Origin: a virus
Taxonomy: Duplodnaviria; Heunggongvirae; Uroviricota; Caudoviricetes
Direction: 5' to 3' (one strand)
Virus record (IMG/VR): IMGVR_UViG_3300021400_000025
Coordinates: 86,479 to 150,478 of that record
Length of the DNA: 64,000 nucleotides
Numbering within the stretch: position 1 is the first letter of the stretch; each line of letters opens with the position of its first letter. Of the stretch, positions 2,024 through 63,814 are shown piece by piece. The translations under genes and the position numbers were made by a program. The notes beneath the pieces were generated by a model. The model saw only the letters and a program-made list of their open reading frames with translations. It was not told where the DNA came from and searched no databases.

Positions 2024-2935
2024 ATGGTTAGCATCAACAACATAGCGGATCTCAAGAACAGAACATTGATGGAAAGCAACACGTTCAAATCGTTTGTGTT
2101 GTCTTCACAGTCCAACGACTTCACAAATCCTCCATCATTGAACGACATTCTGATACATGAATTCCAGACGGCGAACTCCATCACCTTGAATTCCATCTTG
2201 TCGAACTTCATAGTGAATCTGAAATATGCGTGGACAAAGTGGCTTGATCCACAGTCCATGCAGCATACATCGTATTTTCAAGTTCGGAGGGAGGGCGAAT
2301 CCTACTCCAAGCTGGACGACGAGGTTCGGCTTCTTCTGGACATCATGGACGATGGGACAGGGACGTTCAAGTCCAGATATCTGGAGATGGATGCAGTGAC
2401 CATGACCCCCTCGGAGGGGATTTCCAGATACATCTCCCTTGGTGGATTGTGGTATGGTGTGCAGAAGGTTGCGTTGAGGGACAATGAGGATGACGACAAG
2501 TTGGTTCTGGATTCAGAAAACAACTATATCAGCACAGAGAACCTTGTGCTTGCTCCTGAGCCGTTGAACGACTTCACGATGCACGCCAATCCTTATGGTA
2601 CGAATCCATTTGATGCGCCTGGTTGGGCATGGGACGATGAAGGGAATGCTCCAGATGAACCCAATCGGGGTTCGTTCAACGAGTTCATGAAGGTGCGTGC
2701 TGGAAGCGTCTTGAAAACATCCATCCAGATAGACTGCATTGTTGAAAACCTCTTCAAGGGCAACCAGTTCGACTGCGCGAAGGACGATCTTCTCGCCAAG
2801 TGGATATTTCCCGAATCAGAGTTCATCGTGTGCGCGGGTCATGGGATTTACGCCTTGGAGATGCAATATGACAATGGCAAGTTCGTGGGGATGATGATGT
2901 GGGACATAGGCAAGTTGATTCCCAATCTTGATTAG
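2024..2935 (+). CDS. standard-code segment 1 (303 aa) of the recoded ORF 2024..11590
   Basis: ORF track. It ends at TAG, and the frame stays open into 2987. Confidence 0.4.
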   Translation: MVSINNIADLKNRTLMESNTFKSFVLSSQSNDFTNPPSLNDILIHEFQTANSITLNSILSNFIVNLKYAWTKWLDPQSMQHTSYFQVRREGESYSKLDDEVRLLLDIMDDGTGTFKSRYLEMDAVTMTPSEGISRYISLGGLWYGVQKVALRDNEDDDKLVLDSENNYISTENLVLAPEPLNDFTMHANPYGTNPFDAPGWAWDDEGNAPDEPNRGSFNEFMKVRAGSVLKTSIQIDCIVENLFKGNQFDCAKDDLLAKWIFPESEFIVCAGHGIYALEMQYDNGKFVGMMMWDIGKLIPNLD

Positions 2936-8900: not shown

Positions 8901-11590
8901 ACATCAGCATTCCTGATGCGCTGCGCCAGAAGATGATGGAGCTTGTGGACAACATCATGAAGTTGGACAATGGCTACTTCAGCATGGTGTATCAACAGTT
9001 CAAGCAATTCATGGATGTCCTTGTGGGTGAGTTGTCCAGGAGCATTGACATGGAACACATCAAGGATTTGTGTCGATTCAAGTTCAACAACACAGTGACT
9101 TTCAATGGAAGGACATGGAAAATGTTGAATCCCATCCCACCACCATTGAACAGTACATACAAATCCTGCTTGGACGCATTCGATCTCCATCTATGGAAGC
9201 AATTTTGCGACGACTTCATGCGGGTTGATGATTTGACAGTATACGATGATCGCGACTACAAGCATATTCTCTTACCTGACTACTATGATCAGTATCAATC
9301 AAAGATATAGGCCATGAAGAATGCCAAACTTGGCGACTTGTTCCAGCAACTGGATGAGATGGATGGCATCTATGATGAAGTGTTTAGGGATCTCGCCGAC
9401 AAGGTCAGGTTCATCAATCTTGTTCCCACCACCATCAAGGGTGGAATCAAGGGCATGTTCAACGCAGATGATCAGTGCAATGTGTTCCATTCGCAGGGAG
9501 AGACCATTGTTTGGCGCAGATTCTTCTCGTCTGAACCACAGATGAAGACCATACTGCACAACAAGATTTCCAATCCTGTGGGGAACCATGTGTTCGACCC
9601 ATAGTTCCAGATATTGGACTTTGGCATTGATGATGATGGTTGGTTGTTCAAGTTCGCCAACAGGGATTTGACGCATGACGACACGATGGCGATATCGGAT
9701 GCGTTCTGCGTCCATTGCGAGGGGGATTTGTGGCATCTGAATGTACTTGACACATATTTCAGATCCCCCACATCATATCGCATCAAGGACATCGCCTATG
9801 AGCAGAACGAAGATTGCATCTATGTTCTGTTCTCCGACGACAACCATCTATACAGGTTCGATCATCCATCCATTGGGCAGGATTCCAGGAAATGCGTTCT
9901 TCTTGTGAAGGAGTCTGCAAGCATGAAGATTGAGACGTTCTCCACTGTCCAATTGCAGGATGGCAGTCCATAGTTGGAATCCGTCTATCTGGACTATGAA
10001 GGGTCGGACAATTGGACGATTAGGTTGTACGCCAACGAGTCTGTGGAGACATGGCCCGGAAGTCCATCGTTCTCCATGTTCCAGACCTACAACAACATTT
10101 TGTTCGGGAACTCCTTGTTCAACTCAGGGCAGATGCAGTTCCACAACATATCGAAGAACAAGTAGATGGTGGACATGTTGGATGTCAATGAGGTGGATGA
10201 CCTCTACTATGGATTGTTCAAGAGCAATGTCAAAGGTGATGATGGTGGGTACACGGTGTTCAAGTCATCTGGAGATGGGCAGGGGGTCGTGAAGCGTCTT
10301 CCTTGGAAGGTCGTTGTCCCCAGCATGTTCAGGACTTGCGATCCCTTGTATTCGCTCTATGTCGTGGTCAAGGGGGATGATGGCAAGGTTCAACTGCGCG
10401 AGATTTCATGTCCTGACCAAGACATCTACGCCGACAGAGTGATTGAGGTGCAGCGGATTCTGGAGGAGAAGGATGGCGAGGAGGTGGGCGACTTGAACAT
10501 CAGCTGGCTGATGATGGACGATTTCATCTTGCGCTCTCCCCAATCTTCGTTCTTGATGCTCTCCAACAAGGGGTTGTCCAGAATCCACTATGTCTCCCGC
10601 ATGAAGCAGTTGTCCATAGATGGGCTTCCTGAGTTCAAGGATCTTCTGGCGAAGACATTGAAGGATGGCATTCTCCATAGGCACATGGAGGAGAAGCATG
10701 TCGAGGATTTGTTCAAGCAGATTGAACGCAAGGTCAATCAGCGTGAAACTGGATTCAGCGTGTTCGATTTGCTTCCGACAGAATTCCAACAGACCCAGGA
10801 CATTGGCGTGATTCCAGACTCCAAGATTGACGATGACGACGATTTCACCGATCATAGATCAGACTCCATACAAGTGTCCACCGACTTGACGATGGCAGAT
10901 GGCATGTTCGCGTCAGTCGACACCAATCCTGGGATTGTCTCTGGGGCAGTGGCCAATCCAGCCACAACATATGACAGCGACTATGTGTTCTTGAAGTCCC
11001 AGCGCAACCCCTCCATAGTGGGAACGGAGTTCTATGACTACATCACCGACACTGATGGGAACATCTTGATGGATTTGTATCAGATTCCCTTCATATACCA
11101 GGTCAACACCAACAACACATATGACCTCTACATCAACCTCCCCACAACCAGAACCAAGTATCTGAACAGAATCGCGGGGACTTTGAAGGATGACTTGACA
11201 AGCCAGGTGTTGAAGGATGATGTCCGCGCCAGATTGAACTTCAACAACGAGATGATGCCGAACAACCTTGACGAATCCACAACAAGGTTGAGGGTGTACA
11301 TCGACAGAAAATACATCTCAATAGGCAATGTCGAGTTGGTTGAGATTTCGGGCAACTCAATCCCACTTCAGATATACAGGGACAGTGGCGCGAACAATGA
11401 TCTCTACGATTCAATAGCCCTTGAAAGCAGATGGGATGGAGAGGTTGTTGAAATCAACGAGCCAAGCAAGGACATCAACAAGGTCATGTTGGAGTTCGAG
11501 TGCTATGGAACCGACTCTCAGTCAATCCACATCCAGGGCAAGACCTTGATTAACAGGGCGTTGGACGACAAGAAATACATCTTTGGCTGA
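2024..11590 (+). CDS. composite giant ORF of about 3188 codons, continuous in one frame. It contains 15 in-frame TAG codons and no TGA/TAA, and terminates at TGA 11588-11590. Putative recoded virion megaprotein
   Basis: All eleven standard-code ORFs between 2024 and 11590 share frame 2. Every junction is a TAG followed by open frame, which I verified codon by codon (TAGs at 2933, 3992, 4397, 5339, 5858, 8018, 8075, 8168, 8306, 8387, 8411, 9308, 9602, 9971, 10163). The internal 'starts' have no Shine-Dalgarno sequence. A TAA at 1985-1987 closes the frame upstream. Confidence 0.55.
2987..3994 (+). CDS. standard-code segment 2 (335 aa) of the recoded ORF
   Basis: ORF track. Same frame as segment 1. 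Ends at TAG. Confidence 0.4.
   Translation: MDEISTLVVMFSDKNGKYHYAYVNEKSYDAAYGFTPIRDLVDNTLTTNPQLVFNRVDSIKQLGDVNIAMTDYGFWDLELNQTDNITYSFRHTGKSYKACTWNGHLMTNTKIILPDNHQMMPGSKICEYDKQWTLDDSTNTHWVMDDSTKSQFVDVVRVDGEKHKFVGGLPGNFALYDVSESSPAQLLVDMDENEFKRAIFADSELAYRFTEWLYGQVVYPNKGQKYIDDIKTDAWWTGDFQTKAETKSISDVIYPLSSSSFLVGKFEDIRHMIGDEATSLQDYCKALADINATPPSSDLNWLVSDQSSLEEAIKTWFRDTDNENGFSQRHKDGFV
3998..4399 (+). CDS. standard-code segment 3 (133 aa) of the recoded ORF
   Basis: ORF track (TTG start). Same frame. Ends at TAG. Confidence 0.35.
   Translation: MMPLIQGEYPLLFTHFKQYLNDWLNETIEIQEGDSQTLTFTNVEEISRKVKDYIMSLVPVCLEMVGSDQSDLLRKNRLHQNQFMLGKSQALDIYSPMNASNEMLKAVKSTPFFMNANSYSGIIQTNGSPFKIE
4403..5341 (+). CDS. 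standard-code segment 4 (312 aa) of the recoded ORF
   Basis: ORF track (GTG start). Same frame. Ends at TAG. Confidence 0.4.
   Translation: MEYAKKSGMVDGDGNIQLNWNGIKEWLLGDEVKQDVNVLKALVKTQLYRPLFFKHDDYEHFTSDASKYWCETQKSFNDHNGVLHLVKWEKDGDDGEKWGDLDPSGSGLTSDASNMEYTEQKYNKISNVISYNVVVKDVPIVDGKFVYNDVEFYVVKDKDNNPTSVYFNEFQKEMEQYTQKIEIEDNKFKIQIKFIDPRGQLAVKDVECELIDGGTKVKLNGHEQEVHDGMFNVDGVWYVLNNEENIVKFFKVDDSLLRKLVVSQDGHVMFDRWSLDMEFGGNGGSSATVDITRHYDMPVVDVLVKEWCEYDN
5360..5860 (+). CDS. standard-code segment 5 (166 aa) of the recoded ORF
   Basis: ORF track (TTG start). Same frame. The TAG at 5858 is followed by open frame up to 5936. Confidence 0.35.
   Translation: MRTFEWWLATKINDMRIMPQYQSSVDALGNGNLYDGGLMGSHCVFSVENVVVDGYVQSRGVLTKGEGDSAVRIDLGVLYNDQMELISTRTFRGTVNDAGEIEEDPTGGFRFILDSEDSPRNICHCFWLEESRYKSTHSHQDAVADVEFILDYDQDDNGTPMEPDLS
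5936..8020 (+). CDS. standard-code segment 6 (694 aa) of the recoded ORF. It ends with a PSSSDE tandem repeat
   Basis: ORF track (GTG start). Same frame. Ends at TAG 8018. Confidence 0.4.
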   Translation: MVTLSANKRTIRFNVDVNENRVGSYIVNSRDDKVDVVVDGRRYRLDLNARTVESWTLQNVEVSTMDFSTQYTPQTLRDAMVKNIQQWMLGEIVHAMSHNNDENPTIMKLELTDKMKLWLDMFADDESVQMHLLAQPNADTQSEVKFREIFKNDWVEERNDSGQGLAWKHLKETIDGVYGDQVSLSLNTEPAMEVGYDENGVAKTFTLKVHVDVHVMQNRDLVKNTPNFNDKWMASSATLHDVVFYVEFTPKFSYQSNPLSYDVEYGIESSDSILATIDGIIFNSLGKTRTKTLEVPIRIERFSLDGMESGQSSMSDLNGLLPDQLLPKFLDSTKSRALLESVNEKIDSSASSLVVGSQVVVNAQMKDDGDIQTGHAWEIGSPIPSESSLGGLQFMEESRGRTQISGEEYQLVSSDSRLVSLDDNKVYFDVEEIDRGIIGEQGKVHVALTDEEVPDSTYLNGWFSLENINDTMYLKINAKNGGDSISLPENKGELVLHASDFPEFKQEYKWTMGDSTTSSLWQYTSELTVQDENWNFKVEKMRLENDGTGSETSSTESELVGSATRSSLSFLLLEDDQPKLDEQDDKWVGFLSEDEADSSQSGVFMGPSLTNQDDFHVKLMWEVGENVEPKYYLVNDNAPEVCDVSSEDGALLFDYELPIQVSPSSDEPSSSDEPSSSDEPSSSDEPKKYGVDGK
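7921..7992 (+). repeat. 18-nt tandem repeat ccatcatcaagtgatgaa (about 4 copies) encoding (PSSSDE)n
   Basis: Seen directly in the sequence and in the translated protein. Confidence 0.7.
8468..9310 (+). CDS. standard-code segment (280 aa) of the recoded ORF
   Basis: ORF track (GTG start). Same frame as 5936..8020. Five closely spaced TAGs (8018 to 8413) separate it from the previous segment. Confidence 0.4.
   Translation: MDRLFALKTFSGDNIIIIDSTSSSIDKIDNAFAWIPTNLKNGIKRDEYDLKMFYLNDFVPSNSSLPSLRYCPCDIVSLPPDQAPSRDGEVYGRQYTHKKDIVVEHTDIDQNDANGKFWLNLADTLKSITIIPSNDQYPDLMPESDISIPDALRQKMMELVDNIMKLDNGYFSMVYQQFKQFMDVLVGELSRSIDMEHIKDLCRFKFNNTVTFNGRTWKMLNPIPPPLNSTYKSCLDAFDLHLWKQFCDDFMRVDDLTVYDDRDYKHILLPDYYDQYQSKI
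9314..9604 (+). CDS. standard-code segment (96 aa) of the recoded ORF
   Basis: ORF track. Same frame, TAG-delimited on both sides. Confidence 0.35.
   Translation: MKNAKLGDLFQQLDEMDGIYDEVFRDLADKVRFINLVPTTIKGGIKGMFNADDQCNVFHSQGETIVWRRFFSSEPQMKTILHNKISNPVGNHVFDP
9614..9973 (+). CDS. standard-code segment (119 aa) of the recoded ORF
   Basis: ORF track (TTG start). Same frame, TAG-delimited. Confidence 0.35.
   Translation: MDFGIDDDGWLFKFANRDLTHDDTMAISDAFCVHCEGDLWHLNVLDTYFRSPTSYRIKDIAYEQNEDCIYVLFSDDNHLYRFDHPSIGQDSRKCVLLVKESASMKIETFSTVQLQDGSP
9974..10165 (+). CDS. standard-code segment (63 aa) of the recoded ORF
   Basis: ORF track. It starts on the codon right after TAG 9971 and ends at TAG 10163. 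Confidence 0.35.
   Translation: MESVYLDYEGSDNWTIRLYANESVETWPGSPSFSMFQTYNNILFGNSLFNSGQMQFHNISKNK
10166..11590 (+). CDS. terminal standard-code segment (474 aa) of the recoded ORF. Ends at TGA
   Basis: ORF track. Its ATG directly follows TAG 10163 in frame. Confidence 0.45.
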   Translation: MVDMLDVNEVDDLYYGLFKSNVKGDDGGYTVFKSSGDGQGVVKRLPWKVVVPSMFRTCDPLYSLYVVVKGDDGKVQLREISCPDQDIYADRVIEVQRILEEKDGEEVGDLNISWLMMDDFILRSPQSSFLMLSNKGLSRIHYVSRMKQLSIDGLPEFKDLLAKTLKDGILHRHMEEKHVEDLFKQIERKVNQRETGFSVFDLLPTEFQQTQDIGVIPDSKIDDDDDFTDHRSDSIQVSTDLTMADGMFASVDTNPGIVSGAVANPATTYDSDYVFLKSQRNPSIVGTEFYDYITDTDGNILMDLYQIPFIYQVNTNNTYDLYINLPTTRTKYLNRIAGTLKDDLTSQVLKDDVRARLNFNNEMMPNNLDESTTRLRVYIDRKYISIGNVELVEISGNSIPLQIYRDSGANNDLYDSIALESRWDGEVVEINEPSKDINKVMLEFECYGTDSQSIHIQGKTLINRALDDKKYIFG

Positions 11591-24955: not shown

Positions 24956-26128
24956 ATGTTGAAGGTTCAAGAGTTCATCAAGGGCAACTCGGATTGGGAG
25001 TGCTTGCTTTCGTCCGAGCCTTATTGCATCTCAATATCGCACGATACGATGTATGGGCGCGATTTGGTCATGTTCAAGTACGACCAGATTCGCTCTGACT
25101 TGTCCATTCCTCTTGTTCAGGAGTGTCGTGGTCTGATTCTGGATTCAAACACCTTCGAGGTCGTGTCCCATCCCTTCCACAAGTTCTTCAACTATGGAGA
25201 GGAACTGGCTGTGGACATTGACTGGAAAACAGCCTGGACATCCAGTAAGATCGACGGATCCATCATCAAGGTCGTGAATCTGGATGATGACAATTTCCTG
25301 ATTTCAACGAATGGCATGATTGACGCATTCAAGTGTTCTCTGCCTGAGAACTATGGCCGTCCGTTTGAGACCTTTGGCGAGCTGTTTCTGGAGGGAATGA
25401 AGTTCTATGGTCTGACGATGGATGATTTTCCCCGGCTGTTCAAGCCTGGATTCACCTACATGTTCGAGTTGACTTCTCCTTGGAACCAGGTTGTGGTGAA
25501 TTGGAATGAAACCAAGGTGTGGTTCATTGGGGTGAGGGACAACAGGACTGGCGAGGAGATTAGGTTCTCTGACCACGAACTGTCCAAGATCTTCGACACT
25601 CCCAGGGTGTTTCCGATGAGGTCGTTCGATGATGTGGTGAAGGCTGCGAAGGAACTTCCTGACGACGAGGAGGGATATGTGGTGTGTGATTCTGGATTCA
25701 GAAGGGTGAAAGTCAAGTCCCCCCGATACGTCCAGCTCCACTACATGGCCGGCAACCAGATTTGGTCTCCAACGAGGGTCATGGAGATAATCCGGGACAA
25801 CGAGGTGTCGGAGTATGTGGCATACTTCCCCAAGTTCAAGGTGGCGTTCGACGAAATCAAGGCGAAGTACGATGCCTATGTGGATGAACTGGAGGATGTG
25901 AAGGAGGCCATTGACAATCTGATGGTGGTGGAATGGAACATCACCAAGAAGGACTTCGCCAAGTGGGTGTTCACCATCAACACCATCCGCCCTTACTCTG
26001 GGTTCGCGTTCTCCTACTTTGATTCAGTATACGCGAAAGTCAAGAAGGACGATGCCCTGGTCAGGAACGTTGACGAGTACCTTGCCAAGATGCCCACTGC
26101 GAAGTTGGTGGAGGCTCTTGGATTGTAA
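24956..26128 (+). CDS. rnlA: ATP-dependent RNA ligase 1 (T4 RnlA / gp63 family)
   Basis: Track ORF 24926..26128, with the ATG at 24956 lying after SD caaggagc. The motifs VQECRGLIL, KIDGSII (the KxDG nucleotidyl-lysine motif) and EGYVVCDSGFRRVKVKSPRY match T4 Rnl1 ALECRGIMF, KEDGSLV and [20 protein letters not shown]. Confidence 0.8.
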   Translation: MLKVQEFIKGNSDWECLLSSEPYCISISHDTMYGRDLVMFKYDQIRSDLSIPLVQECRGLILDSNTFEVVSHPFHKFFNYGEELAVDIDWKTAWTSSKIDGSIIKVVNLDDDNFLISTNGMIDAFKCSLPENYGRPFETFGELFLEGMKFYGLTMDDFPRLFKPGFTYMFELTSPWNQVVVNWNETKVWFIGVRDNRTGEEIRFSDHELSKIFDTPRVFPMRSFDDVVKAAKELPDDEEGYVVCDSGFRRVKVKSPRYVQLHYMAGNQIWSPTRVMEIIRDNEVSEYVAYFPKFKVAFDEIKAKYDAYVDELEDVKEAIDNLMVVEWNITKKDFAKWVFTINTIRPYSGFAFSYFDSVYAKVKKDDALVRNVDEYLAKMPTAKLVEALGL

Positions 26129-37511: not shown

Positions 37512-38558
37512 ATGTGGAAAGGAAACAACGGCAAAATGATTGAAGTGGAGTCAAAGGCAAGCAGGGTCTCAATTCCAGTATCCAGAGCAGTGTTCTCGGA
37601 TTCTGCGATAAGCCTCTACGACATCTTCAACAAGGAGGTGTTTGACGATACTGTTTCTGTCCAAGATGGCTTCCAGAAGTTTGTTGAATTGGTGTATTCT
37701 GGATTCAGTTTCCAGCCACCAACGATGAACACGGTTCCAGTCAAGTTCCCAGAGAATGTCCCAGATGTTGACCCCAACATGGTCCTTGTGGCAGTGAGTG
37801 GTGGACTTGACTCCATAGCGCAGATGCTTTTCCTCAAGGAAAGTGGGCGTTCAATCGTTGCATACACGATGGCTAACATGAACCGAAGTTGTGGTGGTCA
37901 GGAACTCAAGGCGATGAAGGCTGTATGCGAGAAGGTTGGTGTTCCGATTGTTGAGGCGAGATACGTTGGCAACTTCAAGAAGGACAATCCATACAGAAAG
38001 CACTGGGCAGAGAACCCAATCAAGAACCAGATGATAATGGCAACGATGGTGGATTGGTGCATCGAGAATGGGTGCAGGACGATTAGCCTTGGAGAGAAGG
38101 ACAACTTCTTCCTCAAGGACTGCGTTCCAGGAACAAACTTCACCGACGCATCCGAGGTGTCGAGGACTTTCATTGAGTGCGTGAACAGACATGTTGGGAT
38201 TGACTATCTGACGATGGATTTGTCCATCACAAAGCTGGACGAGTTGAAGATTGCCATGAAGTATGGGGTTGAGGATCTTCTGTTCAGTTGCTTCTCGGCC
38301 CAATCCTCCAACAAGTGCCATGAAATGAACCAACGGAAGTATGGCATCACGTTGTGGAGGAACAACTGTGGATGCTCTTGCAGGAAGTGCGCACACTACA
38401 ACCTTCTTCTCCATTATGGTGGGATCAAGGCGTTCCCACAGGATTTCGTGGACGCCTGTTGGAGAAAACTCTACTCCACGAAGGAATTGAAAAACACGTT
38501 CAACCCAAGCATGGACGAAAAGACGAGGATGGAGAACTTGTTCAACTTTTCCGCGTGA
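37512..38558 (+). CDS. queC: PP-loop ATP pyrophosphatase, QueC-like (7-cyano-7-deazaguanine synthase family) with an N-terminal extension
   Basis: SGGLDS PP-loop motif, plus a C-terminal Cys cluster (CGCSCRKC) like the QueC zinc site. The length (348 aa) is atypical for QueC. Confidence 0.5.
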   Translation: MWKGNNGKMIEVESKASRVSIPVSRAVFSDSAISLYDIFNKEVFDDTVSVQDGFQKFVELVYSGFSFQPPTMNTVPVKFPENVPDVDPNMVLVAVSGGLDSIAQMLFLKESGRSIVAYTMANMNRSCGGQELKAMKAVCEKVGVPIVEARYVGNFKKDNPYRKHWAENPIKNQMIMATMVDWCIENGCRTISLGEKDNFFLKDCVPGTNFTDASEVSRTFIECVNRHVGIDYLTMDLSITKLDELKIAMKYGVEDLLFSCFSAQSSNKCHEMNQRKYGITLWRNNCGCSCRKCAHYNLLLHYGGIKAFPQDFVDACWRKLYSTKELKNTFNPSMDEKTRMENLFNFSA

Positions 38559-39540: not shown

Positions 39541-39590
39541 CCACGATGCTAAAGACATCGTGGCTTCACGGATGTTCTGCTTCGCAGAAC
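39541..39590 (-). ncRNA. two perfect hairpins (ccacgatg-N7-catcgtgg and gttctgc-ttc-gcagaac) at the 3' end of tnpB. Candidate omega-RNA / IS right-end structure
   Basis: Stems read directly in the sequence. Their position matches where IS200/IS605 TnpB guide RNAs are encoded. Confidence 0.35.
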
Positions 39591-40843
39591 GACCCGCGCT
39601 GTATTCGCCTTGGCGAATCACCCCTACGTTCCATAGGTACTTTAAGATTTTTCTCGACAAGGTCCTTGATGTTCAACATGTTCTGTGCGGCATGGATGTC
39701 TCTGTCTTGTTCGTATCCACACTAACACTTGTATGTCCTATCATTCAAGGATAGTTCGTTCATCTTATGGCAATGAGGACACCACTTCGTTGTTGGGATG
39801 TACTTGTCCAATATGATGACATTATCAAGTTTCATCAACTTGGATTTGATTGTTCCCATGCAACTGTGTTGAATAACTTTTGACATTCCTTTTTGCTTGT
39901 GCCATTCTGCCAGTTGCTCGTCTTGTATCACGATTGTGTCATATTGCTTTAGCATATGAACTATCTTGTTTGCCTTGTCTTTTTTCTTATTCGTCAGCTT
40001 CTGGTACTGACGACGGATTCTCTTGATTGTCTTGTATCTCCTGTTTGAACCTTTCTTTTGACGTTGCAGTTTCTTCTGCAACATCTTGAGTCGTTCACTT
40101 TCTTCAACAGATACGTCAAGTTTCTCACCTTCTGAAGTCGTTATGTTCGTTTTGATGCCAAAATCCAGACCTATTTCCTTGTCGTTGGTTTTGGTTTTTG
40201 GCATCTTGTTCTTGTCTATGTAGCATGTCACCTTAAGATAATAGCCATCTGGTTTCTTCAACAAATTTGCATTGGCATATTCATCTACATTCGATAATTG
40301 ATGTGTTCCACGAACTAATATCTTGCCATGTATTCCTTGTATCTTGATCTTGTTTTCTGACTTGAAACTATATGTCTATCCATATTGCTTGAGTGGAATG
40401 CAATTCAATTCAGACTTGAACTGCAAGTTGCCAAATTTCTAATGTCCCCTTTTGACAAGTTGTATTATGGCCATTTGATTGGAGACCATTCTTGCCAAGA
40501 TTGCCTGCTTCTATGCTGCCGACAAGTATTTCAATTCAGATTGAATCAAGTTCTTGTCCTTGTCGTAGTGGTTTACTGTTTTGATGTTTGTGGAGTTGAT
40601 GTCGGATAATCTCAATCCAGATTGTTGATGCAGATTGAGGACATGATTGTAGAACCACTTTCCCTCAACAAAGAGCATGTCAAGTTCTTCGTGTTGGCGT
40701 TTGTTCAATCGTTTCTCTACAATCTTTAGTTCATATGACTTGACGACTTGGTTCTACCTGCGAAGTCTTGTTTGGCTTCGGGTTGCAATAATCTTGTTCT
40801 TCTTTTCGTCAGAACAGACCAATCTATTGTCAATATCCTTCAT
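39566..40843 (-). CDS. tnpB: IS605/IS1341-family TnpB (RuvC-like RNA-guided nuclease). Intact only if 5 in-frame TAGs (40754, 40511, 40439, 40376, 39722) are sense codons
   Basis: Manual minus-strand translation gives one frame from ATG 40843 to TGA 39566, broken only by TAGs. RuvC-I is EIGLDFGIKT, RuvC-II is VIQDEQL, the zinc finger is CPHC...C(TAG)CGY, and RuvC-III DRDIHAAQNMLNI lies after TAG 39722. Track ORFs 39722..40264 and 40511..40708 are fragments of it. Confidence 0.65.
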
Positions 40844-40982: not shown

Positions 40983-41384
40983 TTGAACTGTGAAGCAATA
41001 GGACAGGACGGATACATGTACACAGTAAAGGCAAACATTCCACAGTACGAGCCAAAGAACGCGCCACCAAAGAGCCTCATGGACACCTTGAAGATGGACA
41101 AGTTCAAGGAGTTGATGTCGGGTATCGAGAAGTCTGGCGTGTCACCAGAGGAGAAGCAGTTTCTCAAGATAGCCGCGTTCAGGCATGTTGTGTTCAACTA
41201 TGGGAAGATTGCCGACTATTATGCCTGCGCCTCTCCCGAGATGCAGAAGCTGATGGAGGACTCCGCCCTTGTGATAATCGACATGGACGATGCGATTGCG
41301 AAGGGCTATGTGCGCCTTTCCGAGTCAATCAAGAAGATAGTGGCGAAAAGGCTCGCTGACGAGGGGAAGACGGATGCGAAATGA
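40983..41384 (+). CDS. hypothetical protein (133 aa)
   Basis: ORF track. A tgtataattgaac -10 lies upstream. Confidence 0.5.
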   Translation: MNCEAIGQDGYMYTVKANIPQYEPKNAPPKSLMDTLKMDKFKELMSGIEKSGVSPEEKQFLKIAAFRHVVFNYGKIADYYACASPEMQKLMEDSALVIIDMDDAIAKGYVRLSESIKKIVAKRLADEGKTDAK

Positions 41385-42246
41385 CTTCTGCATATTCTGT
41401 CTGACCTACAAGAGGCCGGACAACATGTACACGGACAAGACTCTGCGCGAGGCTGGGTATACTGGCGACATCCAGTACATTGTTGGGGACGATGATCCAA
41501 CCGTTGGAAGGTACATCGAGAAGTATGGGGCCGACAAGGTTCACGTTTTCAACAAGGAAGAGGTTGGAAAGACATTTGACACCTGCGACATAGAGGGTTC
41601 AAACAAGGTCATAGTGTACGCAAGGAACTATTGCTTCACCGTCGCCAAACAACTTGGGTTGAAGTATTTCGCCCAATTCGACGATGACTACGATAGGTTC
41701 GAGTACAGATTTCCAGTTGGGGAGAAGTTGAAGACAATCAACGTGAGGGAGTTCGATCAGATAGTTGACCTCATGATTCAGCTTCTTGACGACACCGGCG
41801 CCCTGACTTGCGCCTTTGCCCAGAATGGGGATTTCCTCGGAGGGGTTCAAGGGGACGTGACACACAACAGAATGAAGAGAAAGGCGATGAACTCGTTTTT
41901 CTGCCGAACTGACAAGCCATTCAAGTTCTTTGGAAGGATCAACGAGGACGTGAACGCCTACTGCACCCTTGGTTCAAGGGGAGAGCTGTTCTTCAGCGTT
42001 GTTGACGTTGCGCTCCACCAGAAGACAACCCAATCCAACAAGGGTGGGATGTCGGATGTCTATGTTGATGATGGCACGTACCTCAAATCGTTCTACACGG
42101 TGATGAACTGTCCATCTTTCGTGAAGATAGCTGCCATGGGGAACACCCCCGAGACAAGGCGCATACACCACAGGGTGTCGTGGGAGACTGGAGTTCCAAA
42201 GATAATCAGCGACAAGTACAGAAAGCCAAGGGAAGGATTGGATTGA
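41374..42246 (+). CDS. hypothetical protein (290 aa) with a DxD-like acidic motif (QFDDDYDRF), possibly a glycosyltransferase-like enzyme
   Basis: ORF track. The functional guess is weak. Confidence 0.4.
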   Translation: MRNDFCIFCLTYKRPDNMYTDKTLREAGYTGDIQYIVGDDDPTVGRYIEKYGADKVHVFNKEEVGKTFDTCDIEGSNKVIVYARNYCFTVAKQLGLKYFAQFDDDYDRFEYRFPVGEKLKTINVREFDQIVDLMIQLLDDTGALTCAFAQNGDFLGGVQGDVTHNRMKRKAMNSFFCRTDKPFKFFGRINEDVNAYCTLGSRGELFFSVVDVALHQKTTQSNKGGMSDVYVDDGTYLKSFYTVMNCPSFVKIAAMGNTPETRRIHHRVSWETGVPKIISDKYRKPREGLD

Positions 42247-42250
42247 CAAA

Positions 42251-43645
42251 ATGACGTATCTTGAACAGCACAGAGACGAGATATTCAAGAAGTACAGCGA
42301 TGAGGAGTTGTCAAAGGACGTTGACAACTACGTTTCGGGCAAGGGGAGGATGACCAAGTTCATCAACCACTTCTTTGAGGAGTGCATCTTCAACTGCAAG
42401 GACAACAGACTGAAGCTGACTCCAATGGAGGCGTTCCAGAGGGACGATATCCTTGACAAGGTGCGTTCCCTTTTCGCAAATTCCCCAAAGCTGTACACAG
42501 GCTCGGAGATTGAGAACATCAAGAAGCACTTCAGCCTTGGATGGATTGGGTCAAGGAAAGTTGCGAACTTCTGTCCAAAAAACGCAAGGACAATCTACCA
42601 GAGGTACTTCAACGACCTCAATGGTCTGAACATCCTTGACACCTCCTGTGGATTCGGCTCAAGGATGCTTGCCACGATACTGAATGGGGCCAACTACTAT
42701 GGGTTCGATCCAAACAAAGAACTGTATGGATGCCTCAAGAAGAGCCACCAGTGGCTGATTGACCACAAGAAGGTTCCAGAGGAAAGAGTCTGCGACATAC
42801 ACTGTTGTGGAAGCGAGGAGCATGTTCCAGAACTTGATGGGAAGATGGATCTCTCGTTCACCTCCCCCCCATACTTCAACGTTGAGTCCTACTCGGACGA
42901 TAATGGCGCATCAACGAGGAACCTTGACAACTACGAAGGATGGCTGTGCGAGTTTGTCGCTCCAACCCTTGTGAACACCTACAAGTACCTCAAGGTTGGT
43001 GGGATTGCGATGATCAACATCAAGAACCTGACAAGGGGACAGAAGAAGCCTCTGTACGATGACTTCATGCGTGGGTTCCAGGCAATTCCTGGGTTCGAGT
43101 ACGTTGAGACTTTCTCCATGAAGCATCAGCACAAGAGGACGCTCAAGGAAGACATGACCTATGTTGGGTTCGAGGAGCCTGTGATGGTGTACAAGAAGGT
43201 GAAGGACGAAGACCCCGACCTTGAGAAGGTGAAAGCCGCGTTGACAAGTGGAATCGACACGTCAAAGCAAGCAAGGAAGTCAACAAGGAAATACGCCCCA
43301 GATTCATCCAACACCCAGATTGCCAAAACTGAATCCAGAAAGAAGCAGCCATTCCAGTTGATAATGGACGACATCTCGGGGATTGACCCAAGGACATTGG
43401 GCAAGTTGATGGTTGAGTTGAAGAAAAAGGACATTGGGGTTGAGGTTGTGCATGGCGATGAATGGCTCTACAAGAAGCCAGATGTTGTCTACAAGCTGTG
43501 CGAGGGACTTGATGTCAAGTTGAACAAGTTCAAGAATCTCGATGGATCCATTGTTGAGAAGTACATGGGCAGGAACAAGCTGGTCAGACTCCAACCCGGG
43601 GAGAAGCCAACCTTTGAGCAGATTCCCCCTTTACTGTTCGGTTGA
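42251..43645 (+). CDS. DNA amino-methyltransferase (N6-adenine or N4-cytosine)
   Basis: Motif I LNILDTSCGFGSRM is a SAM-binding FxGxG-like motif. Motif IV is TSPPYF (the (D/N/S)PPY motif). Confidence 0.7.
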   Translation: MTYLEQHRDEIFKKYSDEELSKDVDNYVSGKGRMTKFINHFFEECIFNCKDNRLKLTPMEAFQRDDILDKVRSLFANSPKLYTGSEIENIKKHFSLGWIGSRKVANFCPKNARTIYQRYFNDLNGLNILDTSCGFGSRMLATILNGANYYGFDPNKELYGCLKKSHQWLIDHKKVPEERVCDIHCCGSEEHVPELDGKMDLSFTSPPYFNVESYSDDNGASTRNLDNYEGWLCEFVAPTLVNTYKYLKVGGIAMINIKNLTRGQKKPLYDDFMRGFQAIPGFEYVETFSMKHQHKRTLKEDMTYVGFEEPVMVYKKVKDEDPDLEKVKAALTSGIDTSKQARKSTRKYAPDSSNTQIAKTESRKKQPFQLIMDDISGIDPRTLGKLMVELKKKDIGVEVVHGDEWLYKKPDVVYKLCEGLDVKLNKFKNLDGSIVEKYMGRNKLVRLQPGEKPTFEQIPPLLFG

Positions 43646-50704: not shown

Positions 50705-51388
50705 ATGAAAATGGGAACAGTGGAAATATTGGGAAACACGGAATCAAAGCCAATCACCATGATAGGTGAGATGGCGGGGATATGTTGGGGTGCAGATACA
50801 TCTGACGATGGCAAGAACCACAAGAGGGGCGTGGATTGCATCAAGTCGAACCACGGAAGGGCTTTGGAATATCCTTCCATATATCTTGTGCTTGATGGCT
50901 ATTCTGCCAAGGTGATACGCGAGTTCTACACACATATAATTGGGAATACACGTCTTCAAGCCTCCACCAGATACATAGACTATTCAAAGTGCTTTGATGT
51001 GGTTGTTCCAAAGTCGGTGGCTGTGAATGACGAGGCGTTGAAAACATGGAGGGAGTTCATGGCAAATGTTCCAGCCACAATCCGGAAGTTGAAGGAACTT
51101 GGCATTCCAACCGAAGATGCAACTAATGTATTGCCATTGGCATATGTCACCAAGATTGTTGTCAAGATGAATCTTCGTTCCTTGATGAACATGGCGGAAA
51201 TGAGGTTGTGCAATCGAGCCTATTGGGAATTCAGGGAATTGATGAGTGATATCTTGACTGAACTTGCGAAGTATTCTGACGAATGGGAAGAACTCATATA
51301 TGATCTGAAGGTGTTCAAGCCAAGGTGTGAATTGCTTGGCTACTGCCCCGAGACAAGGGGTTGTGGGAAGAAGAACAAGAAGGAGTGA
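50705..51388 (+). CDS. ThyX-like protein (flavin-dependent thymidylate synthase family, divergent)
   Basis: The 227-aa length fits ThyX. REFYTHIIGNTRLQASTRY aligns to the ThyX signature RHRxxxxxxxSxRY, but RHR is replaced by YTH. Confidence 0.45.
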   Translation: MKMGTVEILGNTESKPITMIGEMAGICWGADTSDDGKNHKRGVDCIKSNHGRALEYPSIYLVLDGYSAKVIREFYTHIIGNTRLQASTRYIDYSKCFDVVVPKSVAVNDEALKTWREFMANVPATIRKLKELGIPTEDATNVLPLAYVTKIVVKMNLRSLMNMAEMRLCNRAYWEFRELMSDILTELAKYSDEWEELIYDLKVFKPRCELLGYCPETRGCGKKNKKE

Positions 51389-53228: not shown

Positions 53229-53993
53229 ATGAACCTTGGAATCCCAGATTGTTGCCCCGTGTGTGGGGGCAAACTTGAAATCATCACGTCAAAGGATGGC
53301 GTGAAGAACCTGTTTTGTGTGAACGAAAAATGCCCTTCGCGCTTCAACGAGCAAGTATCCGCGTTCTGCGAGAGGCTTGGCATCATGGGCGTTTCCAACA
53401 CAACCCTTGAGAATTGGGGCATCAAGACCATACAAGACATAGTGGATTTCAAGCCCAATCCAGCGTACAAGAACGAGGTGAAATTTGCCGAGGAACTTGA
53501 CAAGAAGATGTGGAACGCCAGCAAAGAAAGCATCTTCATCGCGTTGTCCGCGCTTGTGTATGGCGTTGGAAGAAGGGAAATGAAGAAGTTCTGGGACAAC
53601 TGGGGTTCTGGTTGCCTTGACAGTCTGATTTCAATTGAGAACCCATCCGTGAAGGAGCAGATGATTATGGACTCGTTGAAGGTTGTCAAGGAGGCGTATT
53701 TCTCCATTGTTGACAATCCGAAGTACAACGAGCCGAAGGTGGTTGAAACCCCCAAAGTGGATTCAAGCAAAGGGAGCATCTGCTTCACCGGCAAACTTGA
53801 AACCATGACCCGTTCTGTTGCCCAGGACAAGGCGAGGAAGCTGGGCTACGAAATTGCGGAGTCCGTTGCGAAGGGGCTTGGCACATTGGTTGTTGCTGAC
53901 GCCGGACTGAAGGGTGAACCATCGTCAAAGCTGAAGAAGGCGCAGAAGTTGGGAATTCGCATCATGAGCGAGACCGAGTTCAACGCGCTTTAA
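53229..53993 (+). CDS. ligA: NAD-dependent DNA ligase C-terminal module (Zn finger, HhH, BRCT), encoded as a separate gene
   Basis: CPVCGGKL...C.NEKCP is the LigA-type Zn finger. The C-terminal ICFTGKLETMTRSVAQDKARKLGYEIAESVAKGLGTLVVADAGLKGEPSSKLKKAQKLGIRIMSETEF is a BRCT domain. Confidence 0.7.
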   Translation: MNLGIPDCCPVCGGKLEIITSKDGVKNLFCVNEKCPSRFNEQVSAFCERLGIMGVSNTTLENWGIKTIQDIVDFKPNPAYKNEVKFAEELDKKMWNASKESIFIALSALVYGVGRREMKKFWDNWGSGCLDSLISIENPSVKEQMIMDSLKVVKEAYFSIVDNPKYNEPKVVETPKVDSSKGSICFTGKLETMTRSVAQDKARKLGYEIAESVAKGLGTLVVADAGLKGEPSSKLKKAQKLGIRIMSETEFNAL

Positions 53994-56536: not shown

Positions 56537-57697
<1,161 letters not shown>

Positions 57698-59011: not shown

Positions 59012-60061
59012 ATGAAGGGAAGCAATTGGAGAGACAGCAGAATGGCATGCGAGTTGTTCTACTTGAACGACCCGACATGCGCCGAGAAGCCTTATCTGAA
59101 TCCAGAGCCAGAAATCACCATGGTGAAGGAGTTCAAGGTCAAGGACTTCAAGGAGGCAATCCAGTTCACGAAGGAATGGAACGAGAAGCATCCAGAGCAT
59201 GTCCATTATTGGAGGCATGTCCACAACAGGGGGGATTATGGTCTCTGGCACAAGGATGGGATTTGCAGTTGGGGGTTGTCTGATGTTGACAATCATTTCG
59301 TGGACAAGATTGCTGAACTCAGGTTGAAGCTGCGGCAGATTGACAAGGAGATTGCCAACACCGACCCCAATAGACATCCATTGCATCATTGGAGCTGCCG
59401 TCATGATCGCTTGAAGTTGGTGAAGAAGATTGCCAAGATTCGGAGGATTTCCACATGCTGTCTTGTCAGATTCCTTGTGGGGGTCAAGATTGCCGTTTCA
59501 GATTGGTGCAGTTGGTGGCTCAAAGACTTCTGGGTTGACAAGTTCAAGGACTGGAAGTGGGAAAGGAAGCGGCTCTCCACATGGAAGAAAACAGGACATT
59601 CGCCAGACGAGTGGTGGTCGCTTGAACTGCACCTGCTTGAGACGCTCAAGTTCAACCTCAAGAGGATAATCCAGGATGGAATGGGAATCAACAGTGTCTT
59701 CATTGAGGATGTTTTGAGGAAACGCCATGCCAACGAACCAGACTTTGACCTTGAGAAGGAGTTCATCAAGTTCCACATGGGCGAGAACACTGGAGTTGAA
59801 GAAGAGGTTGTTGAACTTCAGAAGCAGACATACGAGCGCATCTGCCACCTTGTTGACCTCTACACCTTCTACTTGAACCAAGAGGTTGACGACAAGGACA
59901 TCTACGATCATCCCGAGTTGAGAACCCCAGACATGGTTGAGACCTACATTGACGGGACATACGACATGATTGACTACAAGGACATGCTGGAGAAGGGCAA
60001 GAAGTGCTGGAACGAAATCTGGGATCTTGTCAAGAAATACGGCCAGCAAATGGGTGATTGA
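59012..60061 (+). CDS. hypothetical Trp-rich protein (349 aa)
   Basis: ORF track. A tgtataattccc -10 and an SD lie upstream. Confidence 0.55.
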   Translation: MKGSNWRDSRMACELFYLNDPTCAEKPYLNPEPEITMVKEFKVKDFKEAIQFTKEWNEKHPEHVHYWRHVHNRGDYGLWHKDGICSWGLSDVDNHFVDKIAELRLKLRQIDKEIANTDPNRHPLHHWSCRHDRLKLVKKIAKIRRISTCCLVRFLVGVKIAVSDWCSWWLKDFWVDKFKDWKWERKRLSTWKKTGHSPDEWWSLELHLLETLKFNLKRIIQDGMGINSVFIEDVLRKRHANEPDFDLEKEFIKFHMGENTGVEEEVVELQKQTYERICHLVDLYTFYLNQEVDDKDIYDHPELRTPDMVETYIDGTYDMIDYKDMLEKGKKCWNEIWDLVKKYGQQMGD

Positions 60062-60087
60062 CCTTGTCCAATGTTGGTAAATACTGA

Positions 60088-60360
60088 TATGATTGAGTAC
60101 CAATATATACCTGACAGCAAGATATGCGTGTCCATGATGAAATTCTCCATAGACGAAACCACGGACACCATACATTAGGTTGCCATTCTGGGTGGATGCC
60201 ATGGCAATTTCGCCGCCATAATGAAACTTCTCAAGGGCAGAAAGGTTCAGGACGTGATCCAGGAACTTGAAGGCATTCAATGCGGCAGGAGAGGCACATC
60301 CTGTCCAGACTAGATTGCCAAGGCGTTGAAGAAATATGTGGATGGTGAGATTTCGCATTG
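60088..60360 (+). CDS. hidden 90-codon ORF with 2 in-frame TAGs (60175, 60310), directly behind a late motif (ttggtaaatactgat ATG). Ends at TGA
   Basis: Manual translation. It is invisible to the track because the TAGs cut it into pieces shorter than 60 aa. Confidence 0.4.
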
Positions 60361-60417
60361 ATTATTGTAAATAATACCACAAAGACCCCATGTCTTTTTC
60401 ATTAGAGGTATATTACA

Positions 60418-60735
60418 ATGGCAGAATTGACAGAGAAGAAATTTGGATATGTTGTGAATTCACCACATCATTGCCATCCACCATGTCCTCCACCACCCAG
60501 GCCAATTCCTCCATCCATGACCGTGAAGGATTGGATGGAGTACATCAATTCCTACATTGATGTCCGCGCCCGTCAGATTTACGACAAGTTGAAGAAGCTG
60601 ATTCCTGGGGGTGGATCCAGTTCAGAGGTCTGGCCCAAGGATTTCATCTTGTTGAGGGATATAAGCACCAATCAGGTGTATGAAGTCTATATGGAGAATG
60701 GGTCTTTGTCTTCAAGACCACATCAGGGTTCTTGA
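60418..60735 (+). CDS. Pro-rich hypothetical protein (105 aa)
   Basis: ORF track. A late-like motif ttattgtaaataata lies 44 nt upstream. Confidence 0.5.
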   Translation: MAELTEKKFGYVVNSPHHCHPPCPPPPRPIPPSMTVKDWMEYINSYIDVRARQIYDKLKKLIPGGGSSSEVWPKDFILLRDISTNQVYEVYMENGSLSSRPHQGS

Positions 60736-62014: not shown

Positions 62015-63724
62015 ATGGCACAAGTTAAATTCTACTCTGTGGCTTCCCTCCCAGAGTCACCAAATGCTGGTGGCGTGTATTTCGTCGATAATGGCGAACT
62101 CTACAAGGGTGGTCAGAGGTTCGGACTTGGTCGCGTGACAGTTGATGCCGATTTCGTTCCTTCCACATCCTCCAAGGATGGGCAGGCTCGTGGTGACATC
62201 GTGGTGACTGGTTCTGGCGCAGGCTGGGTCTTTGATGGTGAAAATTGGCAAAGCATTGGTGGAGACATTGCGTCTCTCCAGAGCATGTGGCAGGCCGATA
62301 TCTCCACATGGACGGCAGGACTTGCCACCACAGGTGAAGACAAGTATATCACTGGCATCACCCAGGGTGCGGATGGCAAGGTGACAGCTGCAACCTCCAC
62401 ATTCTCCACGGATGTGAAGACGGCTATTGGCGATGGCGCTGCTTCAAGCACGGCAAATGGCATCACAGTGTCCGTGGTCACGACATCTGGTTCTGTGACA
62501 GGCGTTGAGGTGGCAGCTGCGAACATCAGCGCCACTTCTGGCACATTCGAGAACTTGACGGTCACTGACACAGCAACCTTCTCAGCAACCACAGTTTCCG
62601 CTGACACCCTTACGATTGGTGGAAGCACGGTTGAGCAGTTGGCTGACAAGCAAATTGCTGCAATCTCTGCAAGCACAGTTGTAAGCGCAAGCAATGGCAT
62701 CACAGTGAGCGTGACGACCCAGGGTGGTTCTGTCACAGCAGTCTCTCTCAATGCTGAGGCATTTGGCAACACAATCCACTTCCGTGGCGTTGAGGCTTCT
62801 ACTGGCGCTGTGAGCGATCCTGTGGCTGGCGATATCGTGGTGATTGGTTCTACACCTGGTGAGGGCTTCGTTGCCGGTCAAGAGTACATCTATGATGGCA
62901 CGAAGTGGGAACTCATTGGCGACCAGAACACCTATGCTGTGAATGCATATTCTTCAACAGCTACAGTGTTCACGGGAGTTGAGACGGTTCCTGGTGCGTT
63001 GAATGCGGCAGGTGCTGCGATTGACGCGCTCAAGACCAAGACTGACGCATATGTTGGTGGTTCTGCTTCTGATGCTGACCAGGGCGTTGCTGTCACGGTG
63101 AGCGTTGATGCTACGACACTCGCTCCTTCTGTGGATGTGGTTGTCACTTCCGCGACATTGTTCGATGGATTGGATGCTACGGTGTCCTCTGCTGCCAAGG
63201 GCGTTGAAGTTGAAGTTGTTGAGGAGAATGGCAAGCTCACAAGCGCAACTGTTGCTGTGACGGCTTCTTCCGAGATGGCATTTGGTGCAACTGGTTCTGC
63301 AAATGACCTCGCAACCACGGCTGCCGTCAAGAGCTACTTCGAGAACAACCTTGTGTGGCTCGGAGCGGATGGCAATCCGGTTGATGGGGGCAGCACGCCT
63401 GATCCTGCAAAGACCAGGTTCACCATTCAAGGTGGACCGGTTAGGGAACATAACATAAGTGGATCGCTTGACAGGCAGTGGCTGGATAGCAATGAATATT
63501 ATGATGGGGAAAACTCTGAGTGGTTAGTGAACATACTTCAGGTAGACATTGGAAATACAGTTACAAGCATCGGAAGTCAGACATTCGATATGTGCGGCGA
63601 TCTTACGAGTGTGACGATCCCCGACACTGTGACCAACATTGACATGAATGCGTTCATGGGTTGCAATAACCTTACAAGTGTGACAATAACTGCAAATGGT
63701 GGAAATGCTGAATCTGTCAAGTAG
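62015..63724 (+). CDS. tail-fibre-like protein (Ala/Thr/Val-rich beta-helical repeats) with a C-terminal BspA-type leucine-rich repeat. TAG-terminated, with 18 more open codons to TGA 63779-63781
   Basis: ORF track. Repetitive GITVSV(V/T)T..GSVT.V segments. The C-terminus ...SIGSQTFDMCGDLTSVTIPDTVTNIDMNAFMGCNNLTSVTI... A late motif lies at 61917. Confidence 0.55.
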   Translation: MAQVKFYSVASLPESPNAGGVYFVDNGELYKGGQRFGLGRVTVDADFVPSTSSKDGQARGDIVVTGSGAGWVFDGENWQSIGGDIASLQSMWQADISTWTAGLATTGEDKYITGITQGADGKVTAATSTFSTDVKTAIGDGAASSTANGITVSVVTTSGSVTGVEVAAANISATSGTFENLTVTDTATFSATTVSADTLTIGGSTVEQLADKQIAAISASTVVSASNGITVSVTTQGGSVTAVSLNAEAFGNTIHFRGVEASTGAVSDPVAGDIVVIGSTPGEGFVAGQEYIYDGTKWELIGDQNTYAVNAYSSTATVFTGVETVPGALNAAGAAIDALKTKTDAYVGGSASDADQGVAVTVSVDATTLAPSVDVVVTSATLFDGLDATVSSAAKGVEVEVVEENGKLTSATVAVTASSEMAFGATGSANDLATTAAVKSYFENNLVWLGADGNPVDGGSTPDPAKTRFTIQGGPVREHNISGSLDRQWLDSNEYYDGENSEWLVNILQVDIGNTVTSIGSQTFDMCGDLTSVTIPDTVTNIDMNAFMGCNNLTSVTITANGGNAESVK

Positions 63725-63814
63725 ATGATGATTGACGCTGGAGCGACAGAAGTAACTACTTGGAACATGCCAAGCTGATTGACTTGTCAAGCAAGCATTA
63801 GATTGGTACATTAA

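Follow-up and report, generated by a model that had tools for sequence, protein, structure and literature searches.

An interrupted reading frame between two annotated genes

Between the TGA (60059-61) that ends a 349-aa ORF and the ATG at 60418, the window, by which we mean the whole 64-kb stretch of DNA analysed here, contains an interval (60062-60417) with a 90-codon ORF that carries two internal TAGs. An initial annotation had described this gap and the ORF within it, and its gap coordinates and all of the features are present as described; only the codon positions that it gave (ATG 60088, TAG 60175 and 60310, TGA 60358-60360) are each one base too low. The frame starts at ATG 60089-60091 and stops at TGA 60359-60361, both TAGs being counted among the 90 sense codons, and its translation reads MIEYQYIPDSKICVSMMKFSIDETTDTIH-TAG-VAILGGCHGNFAAIMKLLKGRKVQDVIQELEGIQCGRRGTSCPD-TAG-IAKALKKYVDGEISH. 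When TAG is taken as Gln, the peptides across the two sites are TIHQVAILGGCHGNFAAIMK and GTSCPDQIAK. The ATG is immediately preceded by TTGGTAAATACTGAT (60074-60088). Under code 11 the ORF falls into pieces of 29-35, 30-44 and 15 aa, the longest of which, at 44 aa, is shorter than the 60 aa that had been given as an upper limit, and in all four public assemblies of the phage the interval is without a called gene. Standard callers missed the gene because the phage reads TAG as an amino acid. The features of the locus and the other genes with in-frame TAGs are collected in Table 1.

Table 1. Coordinates of the TSCPD gene, of its surroundings and of TAG-bearing genes in the window
Feature	Position	Strand	Description
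Left-end gene	1-1952 (ATG 1952)	-	845 aa in the full contig, in-frame TAG 1743-1745
Giant ORF	2024-11590	+	3188 codons, 15 in-frame TAGs
TAG-bearing ORF	13926	+	5 in-frame TAGs
TAG-bearing ORF	15502	+	2 in-frame TAGs
TAG-bearing ORF	19097	+	1 in-frame TAG
TnpB-like gene	39566-40843 (ATG 40843, TGA 39566)	-	425 codons, 5 in-frame TAGs
Upstream gene	59012-60061	+	349 aa, ends in TGA, no in-frame TAG; closes the TAG-free block
Antisense ORF	59498-60358	-	286 aa, shadow in triplet register of two plus-strand genes
Promoter-like motif TTGGTAAATA	60074-60083	+	core GTAAATA 60077-60083, ends 5 nt 5' of the TSCPD ATG
TSCPD-family (TIGR03905) gene	60089-60361	+	90 sense codons and TGA; product with TAG as Gln: MIEYQYIPDSKICVSMMKFSIDETTDTIHQVAILGGCHGNFAAIMKLLKGRKVQDVIQELEGIQCGRRGTSCPDQIAKALKKYVDGEISH
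In-frame TAG 1	60176-60178	+	codon 30
In-frame TAG 2	60311-60313	+	codon 75, directly after the TSCPD motif
Conserved intergenic element ATTATTGTAAATAATACCACAAAG	60361-60384	+	begins on the final base of the TSCPD stop codon
Next gene	60418-60735	+	105 aa, TAG-free here, SD-like AGAGG at 60404-60408
TAG-bearing ORF, LRR_5-containing	62015-63778	+	1 in-frame TAG

An open frame of 90 codons is in itself not beyond chance: from the base composition, 90 random codons are free of TAA and TGA with P = 0.031, and in the shuffled window 37 of 1217 ATGs reach this open length. It is the homology, the coding score and the substitution pattern that mark the frame as non-random. Scoring with TAG as a sense codon, which had been proposed as a check, gives the frame +20.5 on a codon-usage scale trained on the window's own genes, within reach of real 90-codon chunks (32.4 ± 10.4); off-frame chunks score -46.5 ± 20.9. 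One alternative is that the true gene is the 286-aa ORF on the minus strand, which is long and uninterrupted under code 11, or that the interval lacks a gene altogether, its plus frame belonging to the roughly 3% that stay open by chance. The minus-strand ORF, however, lies in exact antisense register with two plus-strand genes, and comparable shadows are seen over many plus-strand genes of the window; we discarded it on its coding score of -15.5 and the absence of a Pfam match at E ≤ 1. With a family match of the plus frame at E 6e-26 set against it, this alternative has a negligible probability, and we continue with the plus-strand frame as the gene.

Family, fold and predicted function of the product

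Homology search of the 90-aa product, a further check proposed at the outset, identified it as a member of TIGR03905 (E 5.8e-26; 90.8 bits, curated cut-off 67.7; alignment to profile positions 1-77 of 78) and of Pfam PF12637, TSCPD (E 5.9e-23; 81.4 bits versus a cut-off of 22.8; profile positions 9-87 of 88). Replacing both TAGs by X leaves the matches at E 2e-24 and 8.8e-22, respectively, and the 44-aa middle piece alone reaches an E of only 2.5e-13. Since the family alignment spans both TAGs, a complete domain requires translation of both; as TAG is also a sense codon elsewhere in the window, the recoding part of the initial interpretation holds. A search of 5.8 billion proteins returned 238 homologues. 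The residues Cys-13, Cys-37, Cys-65 and Cys-72, the stretch GGCHGN (35-40) and the TSCPD motif (70-74) are all present and correspond to invariant or near-invariant columns in alignments of 27 and 73 sequences. The product shares with stand-alone TIGR03905/PF12637 proteins the length (about 80-95 aa), the four cysteines, the GGCxGN motif and the sequence TSCPDQ(I/V)AKAL, and differs from them in being encoded by a phage and in having TAG at 2 of its 90 codons.

A literature search by family name found no functional study of the stand-alone TSCPD family, and a PDB sequence search for a solved structure gave chance-level matches only. The AlphaFold model of an orthologue with 83% identity (P0002; pLDDT 89.1, pTM 0.81) consists of three strands and three helices, and its best PDB matches, which are weak (E 5e-3, TM 0.57), are IscU Fe-S scaffold proteins. 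The product is a small four-cysteine protein that probably binds a metal or an Fe-S cluster, and the weak resemblance to IscU fits a site with Cys ligands. According to its Pfam description, the TSCPD domain is in addition a C-terminal part of class II ribonucleotide reductases. In NrdJ, the C-terminal domain is a small cysteine-rich, metal-binding redox module, and it can be encoded separately, as NrdJb (PMC5704485). The TSCPD product resembles this domain in being small and rich in cysteine, although its metal binding is only predicted and its four-cysteine pattern differs from the six-cysteine CxxC array of the Zn-binding NrdJd domain (PMC5704485). No NrdJ gene was seen in the window. A TSCPD protein would not be typical of late or structural genes.

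Orthologues and selection through both TAG codons

Conservation in related phages, which the initial annotation had left to be checked, is found in the form of syntenic orthologues under purifying selection. Related contigs keep the same gene order (a 349/350-aa gene, the TSCPD gene and a gene of about 100 aa), and the amino acid identity of the TSCPD proteins is 83% for the contigs L001, L002 and L003, 86% for L005 and about 68% for L004. The nucleotide differences at codon positions 1/2/3 amount to 12/4/45 in comparison with L001 and to 9/5/33 in comparison with L005, and the pN/pS ratio is about 0.1 (dN/dS about 0.05) when calculated separately before TAG 1, between the TAGs and after TAG 2. 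Purifying selection in all three segments indicates that selection acts on translation through both TAGs. Four assemblies (two from ENA, one from Logan and one from JGI) agree to 100% in the sequence with the TAGs, which are therefore not assembly errors.

More distant TSCPD homologues, with 56-64% identity, are located on contigs of 399-434 kb, including contigs from Hadza human-gut assemblies, and the local synteny is unchanged in two of the latter (L013 and L014: ThyX ... BRCT, NAD ligase, 105 aa, 336 aa, TSCPD). On the other hand, a DNA search with 7.5 kb of the window against 50,697 deposited phage records found nothing similar, tblastn of the 349-aa neighbour against deposited phages found nothing, and the NAD ligase reaches 32% identity at most to deposited phages. 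Neither the TSCPD product nor the 349-aa neighbour retrieved relatives when scanned against IMG/VR. These comparisons point to an apparently undescribed clade of gut and rumen megaphages of about 400-430 kb without deposited relatives.

Two premature stops within 90 codons would normally be taken as the sign of a pseudogene, and the closest relatives, L001 and L005, have no TAG in their TSCPD genes, so a decaying gene with two nonsense mutations and no full-length protein has to be weighed. Yet purifying selection does not weaken downstream of either TAG, there is neither a frameshift nor a TAA or TGA, and all motif residues are intact. Moreover, TAG 2 falls exactly on an invariant Gln column, and relatives have TAGs at other codons with the domain intact downstream. 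Decay is also contradicted by the wider use of the codon: TAGs interrupt the 3188-codon ORF and other genes in frame, and no gene is terminated by TAG. We consider the pseudogene reading very unlikely and conclude that 60089-60361 is a true, selected gene concealed by non-standard decoding.

What TAG encodes

The column that contains TAG 2 is occupied by Gln in 115 of 115 homologues, and at the nucleotide level the site reads CAG in L001/L003, L004 and L005 (four contigs representing three distinct relatives), a single C/T difference. The column of TAG 1 is variable and polar (Ser 60, Asp 21, Asn 14, Lys 9, Gln 4 and Glu 4 among 116 sequences); the corresponding codon is TCA/TCT (Ser) in L001/L005, the two closest relatives, CAA in L004 and CAG in L015, the last two both encoding Gln. 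The TSCPD genes of other relatives are interrupted elsewhere. In L004 and L015 the in-frame TAG lies in ...KGK(E/D)VD-TAG-CIADLEG..., and in L016 and L017 in ...VFIDE-TAG-TDMVKS..., in both cases with the domain intact on the 3' side, so that across five relatives TAG is found at four different TSCPD codons. The gene downstream of TSCPD, which is TAG-free in the window, behaves similarly: its orthologue in L001 carries an in-frame TAG at codon 14, and in that of L005 a TAG stands opposite the window's CAG, within the sequence ARQIYDK.

Automated pairing of TAG with aligned residues also produced antisense and off-frame pairs, and only real plus-strand genes were counted. Among the ten pairs from such genes, Gln (CAG or CAA) is the commonest partner with five; the others are Ser, Asp, Asn and Glu, all of them in variable polar columns. 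TAG could instead be translated as a residue other than Gln, such as Ser, Glu, Tyr, Trp or pyrrolysine, or ambiguously. Ser is indeed the modal residue at TAG 1 (60/116) and is present there in the two closest relatives, Asp, Asn and Glu appear among the other pairs, and for the Lak megaphages the amino acid inserted at TAG was at first left open, as cited in PMC11210395. Against this stand the uniform Gln column at TAG 2, the predominance of Gln among the pairs together with the single C-to-T transition that separates CAG from TAG, and the confinement of the deviating pairs to variable, polar columns. In addition, TAG-to-Gln has been validated by proteomics in phages and is the only phage TAG recoding with such validation (PMC9523058). 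A non-Gln or ambiguous meaning is in our estimation improbable, and the alignments support Gln best: TAG is almost certainly read as Gln.

TAG use across the window and the genome

The 58 genes of the window end in TGA (46) or TAA (12), and none ends in TAG. A block of 53 genes (21.4-60.06 kb) has no in-frame TAG in 10,052 codons, at an off-frame TAG frequency of 3.58 per 1000; the block is home to DNA and nucleotide functions, and its products include an RNA ligase (Rnl1-like), a TET-associated glycosyltransferase (TAGT), ThyX and a DNA methylase, along with a PP-loop ATPase and a NAD ligase that is split. By contrast, the five large plus-strand genes listed in Table 1 contain 24 in-frame TAGs in total, and the density is highest in the TSCPD gene with 2 per 90 codons. 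Under code 11 the giant ORF is called as about 10 separate genes, with adjacent ORFs ending in TAG and the same frame continuing beyond. This ORF contains an SSSDEP repeat and has no Pfam or PHROG match, and a homology search with an 801-aa segment of it (10 TAGs) found nothing, with low-complexity SSSDEP words having probably filled the candidates. PHROGs and Pfam searches of the large TAG-bearing genes detected no structural-protein domain and LRR_5 only.

A second seemingly empty stretch of the window contains the TnpB-like gene on the minus strand, an IS-type nuclease that is readable only in a recoded context. It matches Pfam OrfB_IS605 (3.6e-10) and the Cas12f1-like TNB family (1.2e-9), and its TAGs are located at 40754, 40511, 40439, 40376 and 39722, one of them inside the TNB match. 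A GTAAATA sequence ends 9 nt 5' of its ATG.

Look-ups of exact proteins place the window at about 90581-154580, on the reverse strand, of a 418,130-bp contig (ENA ERZ1756080 NODE_700), and it is also contained in a scaffold of 416,990 bp that is opened at another point (SHIW14-1, which we read as a sheep-rumen dataset). Two assemblies with different break points would be expected if the genome is circular and complete at about 417 kb. The window thus appears to be part of a phage genome of about 417-418 kb from sheep-rumen metagenomes, and, judged by its codon usage and alignments, the phage is a TAG-to-Gln (code 15-like) recoded megaphage.

The GTAAATA motif and translation initiation

The core GTAAATA of the motif upstream of the TSCPD gene occurs at 15 sites in the window against 1.55 ± 1.22 expected, an enrichment of about 10-fold, and 13 of the 15 sites are directly upstream of a co-oriented ORF, nearly all copies being intergenic. 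The sites include two divergent pairs, 1959-65(-)/1984-90(+) and 61112-18(-)/61137-43(+), the first of which is flanked by the minus-strand gene starting at 1952 on one side and by the giant ORF on the other. GTAAATA appears to be a putative promoter element that resembles a -10 box only. The initial annotation had called it a late motif. While the motif as such is real and enriched, it precedes not only TAG-bearing genes (2024, 13926, 60089, 62015 and the minus-strand genes at 1952 and 40843) but also TAG-free ones (13538, 21422, 26154, 60418 and 61183), and its specificity for late genes is for this reason unproven. The late promoter of phage T4 is TATAAATA. The window motif, (T/G)GTAAATA, has the last six bases, TAAATA, in common with it and differs in its presence 5' of TAG-free genes as well.

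A gene for a sigma-70-like protein of 260 aa, with weak Sigma70_r2/r4 matches, lies about 2.4-3.2 kb to the left of the window (14390-15172 of contig L010), adjoining genes for DNA methylases and gyrase/topoisomerase. It is a candidate for the factor that would recognize the GTAAATA promoter-like motif.

In the relatives, the motif upstream of TSCPD is kept in L001, L004, L005, L015 and L016. It is absent from L013 and L014 (Hadza gut, 399-401 kb), in which the TSCPD gene is TAG-free and follows the upstream gene at a distance of 15 nt. The four TSCPD variants found with TAG all fall within the group that has the motif, in a small sample with the motif state checked in a few relatives, and it is suggestive that TAG in TSCPD goes together with an upstream GTAAATA.

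Between the motif and the TSCPD ATG there is no Shine-Dalgarno (SD) sequence. The minus-strand gene at 1952 shares this arrangement, with the motif 6 nt before its ATG and no SD. With the motif only 5 nt from the ATG, one may speculate that the TSCPD mRNA is leaderless. For the window as a whole, an SD core precedes 49 of 63 genes (78%) at a background of 28%. Bacteroidota seldom use SD sequences, and the frequent SD use suggests that the host is probably outside the Bacteroidota. For the Lak megaphages, a Prevotella host has been proposed; SD sequences in about 78% of the genes, as in the present phage, would be unusual for a Prevotella or other Bacteroidota host.

Neighbouring genes and elements

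The 349-aa upstream gene has no family match. Its orthologues also precede TSCPD in the relatives (350 aa in L001, 346 aa in L004 and 336 aa in L013). A fusion of this gene with TSCPD by read-through of the TGA was considered, as the two share a frame in the window, and was rejected because the frame relation is lost in L004. Downstream of TSCPD, the element ATTATTGTAAATAATACCACAAAG is identical at 24 of 24 positions in L001/L003, in surroundings that are 82% identical, and L005 has a near-identical copy; the element resembles a promoter motif serving the next gene (60418).

Several further features of the window were observed. Long antisense ORFs in register with the gene opposite them, e.g. 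17239-19161 and 59498-60358, form shadows over many plus-strand genes as a result of codon bias. The TET-associated glycosyltransferase gene (PF20691, 1e-33) lies beside a DNA methylase-like gene at 41374-43645, and ThyX is encoded at 50705-51388; glycosyltransferase, methylase and ThyX together suggest a module for DNA base hypermodification. The NAD-dependent DNA ligase is apparently split into two parts about 2.6 kb apart (53229-53993 with Zn-finger and BRCT, 56591-57697 with adenylation and OB domains), and the layout is the same in the Hadza-gut relatives. Finally, the end of the LRR_5-containing gene (62015-63778) is flanked by a perfect 59-bp inverted repeat, one arm of which is at 63365-63423 and the other at 12766-12824 of contig L006, about 280 bp past the end of the window.

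Decoding and timing

Phage-encoded suppressor tRNAs have been found in about 61% of recoded jumbo phages (PMC13037316). In our case, no tRNA with a CUA anticodon was detected in the 64-kb window by ARAGORN and Rfam searches, which included introns and a lowered threshold, nor did ARAGORN detect a suppressor tRNA in the flanks (about 8 kb to either side) or in related loci; of the roughly 418 kb, about 80 kb was covered in this way. The sole tRNA in the window and its flanks, even with introns allowed, is a tRNA-Arg(TCT) at 23184-23259. Additional low-threshold "tRNAs" with introns of kilobase length were dismissed as artefacts, and none of them had a CTA anticodon.

The tRNA-Arg(TCT), the Rnl1-type RNA ligase (PF09511, 5e-18) and the PP-loop ATPase are encoded within 23184-26128 and 37512-38558, and the PP-loop ATPase shows weak matches to TilS, QueC and tRNA methyltransferases. 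These three genes may possibly serve tRNA repair or modification in a phage with non-standard decoding.

Genes of the TAG-free block are readable with either code, whereas completion of the TAG-bearing genes would need a UAG-decoding activity in the infected cell. In analogy to code-15 phages, we expect a suppressor tRNA(CUA) encoded by the phage and charged with Gln to provide it. Through such a tRNA, the production of TAG-bearing proteins would be tied to a later phase of the infection: the host code suffices for the TAG-free block but not for the TAG-bearing genes, from which we infer that the TSCPD protein would build up only once UAG can be decoded. Late timing of the TAG-bearing genes, TSCPD among them, is plausible on these grounds; since the large TAG-bearing genes carry no recognizable structural domains, "late" is not demonstrated.

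A more far-reaching scenario would be that in this sub-lineage, with a host outside the Bacteroidota, the TSCPD gene has moved from a code-neutral block to code-dependent expression and that its TAGs act as an evolvable translational timer. Taken as a whole, we regard this scenario as rather unlikely. A functional TSCPD gene in a TAG-recoded phage, with both TAGs translated, most probably as Gln, is very likely the correct explanation of the locus.

Comparison with known recoded phages

Among rumen jumbo phages, 8.75% were reported to use alternative genetic codes (PMC13037316). The present phage shares several properties with the code-15 phages described so far, i.e. crAss-like phages, Lak megaphages and recoded jumbo phages (PMC9523058, PMC11210395, PMC13037316): in-frame TAGs in conserved genes that are fragmented under code 11, Gln at the TAG positions in homologues, one block of genes free of TAG while others bear it, and a very large genome from an animal gut. 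It differs from them in that scanning of roughly 80 kb revealed no suppressor tRNA(CUA), in that neither DNA similarity nor close protein similarity to any of the 50,697 deposited phage records was detected, and in that the recoded gene encodes a small cysteine-rich accessory protein and not a structural or lysis protein. TAG-to-Gln recoding of phages is already known, and what is described here is a recoded accessory gene in an undescribed phage of about 418 kb. As code 15 is already established in gut and rumen phages, the advance is an incremental one.

The analysis recovers a true and conserved gene that was missed by public gene calls, and it leads to the recognition of a TAG-recoded megaphage of about 418 kb without deposited relatives. 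Re-annotation of its genome with TAG as Gln would turn many fragments into full genes, including the 3188-aa protein and the TnpB-like nuclease. An invariant Gln column with CAG in sister genomes provides an unusually clean natural readout of the meaning of TAG, and the TSCPD gene illustrates how fast TAG codons can be gained and lost within a single gene. Should the timer reading be true, the product being timed would be a non-structural redox or metal protein.
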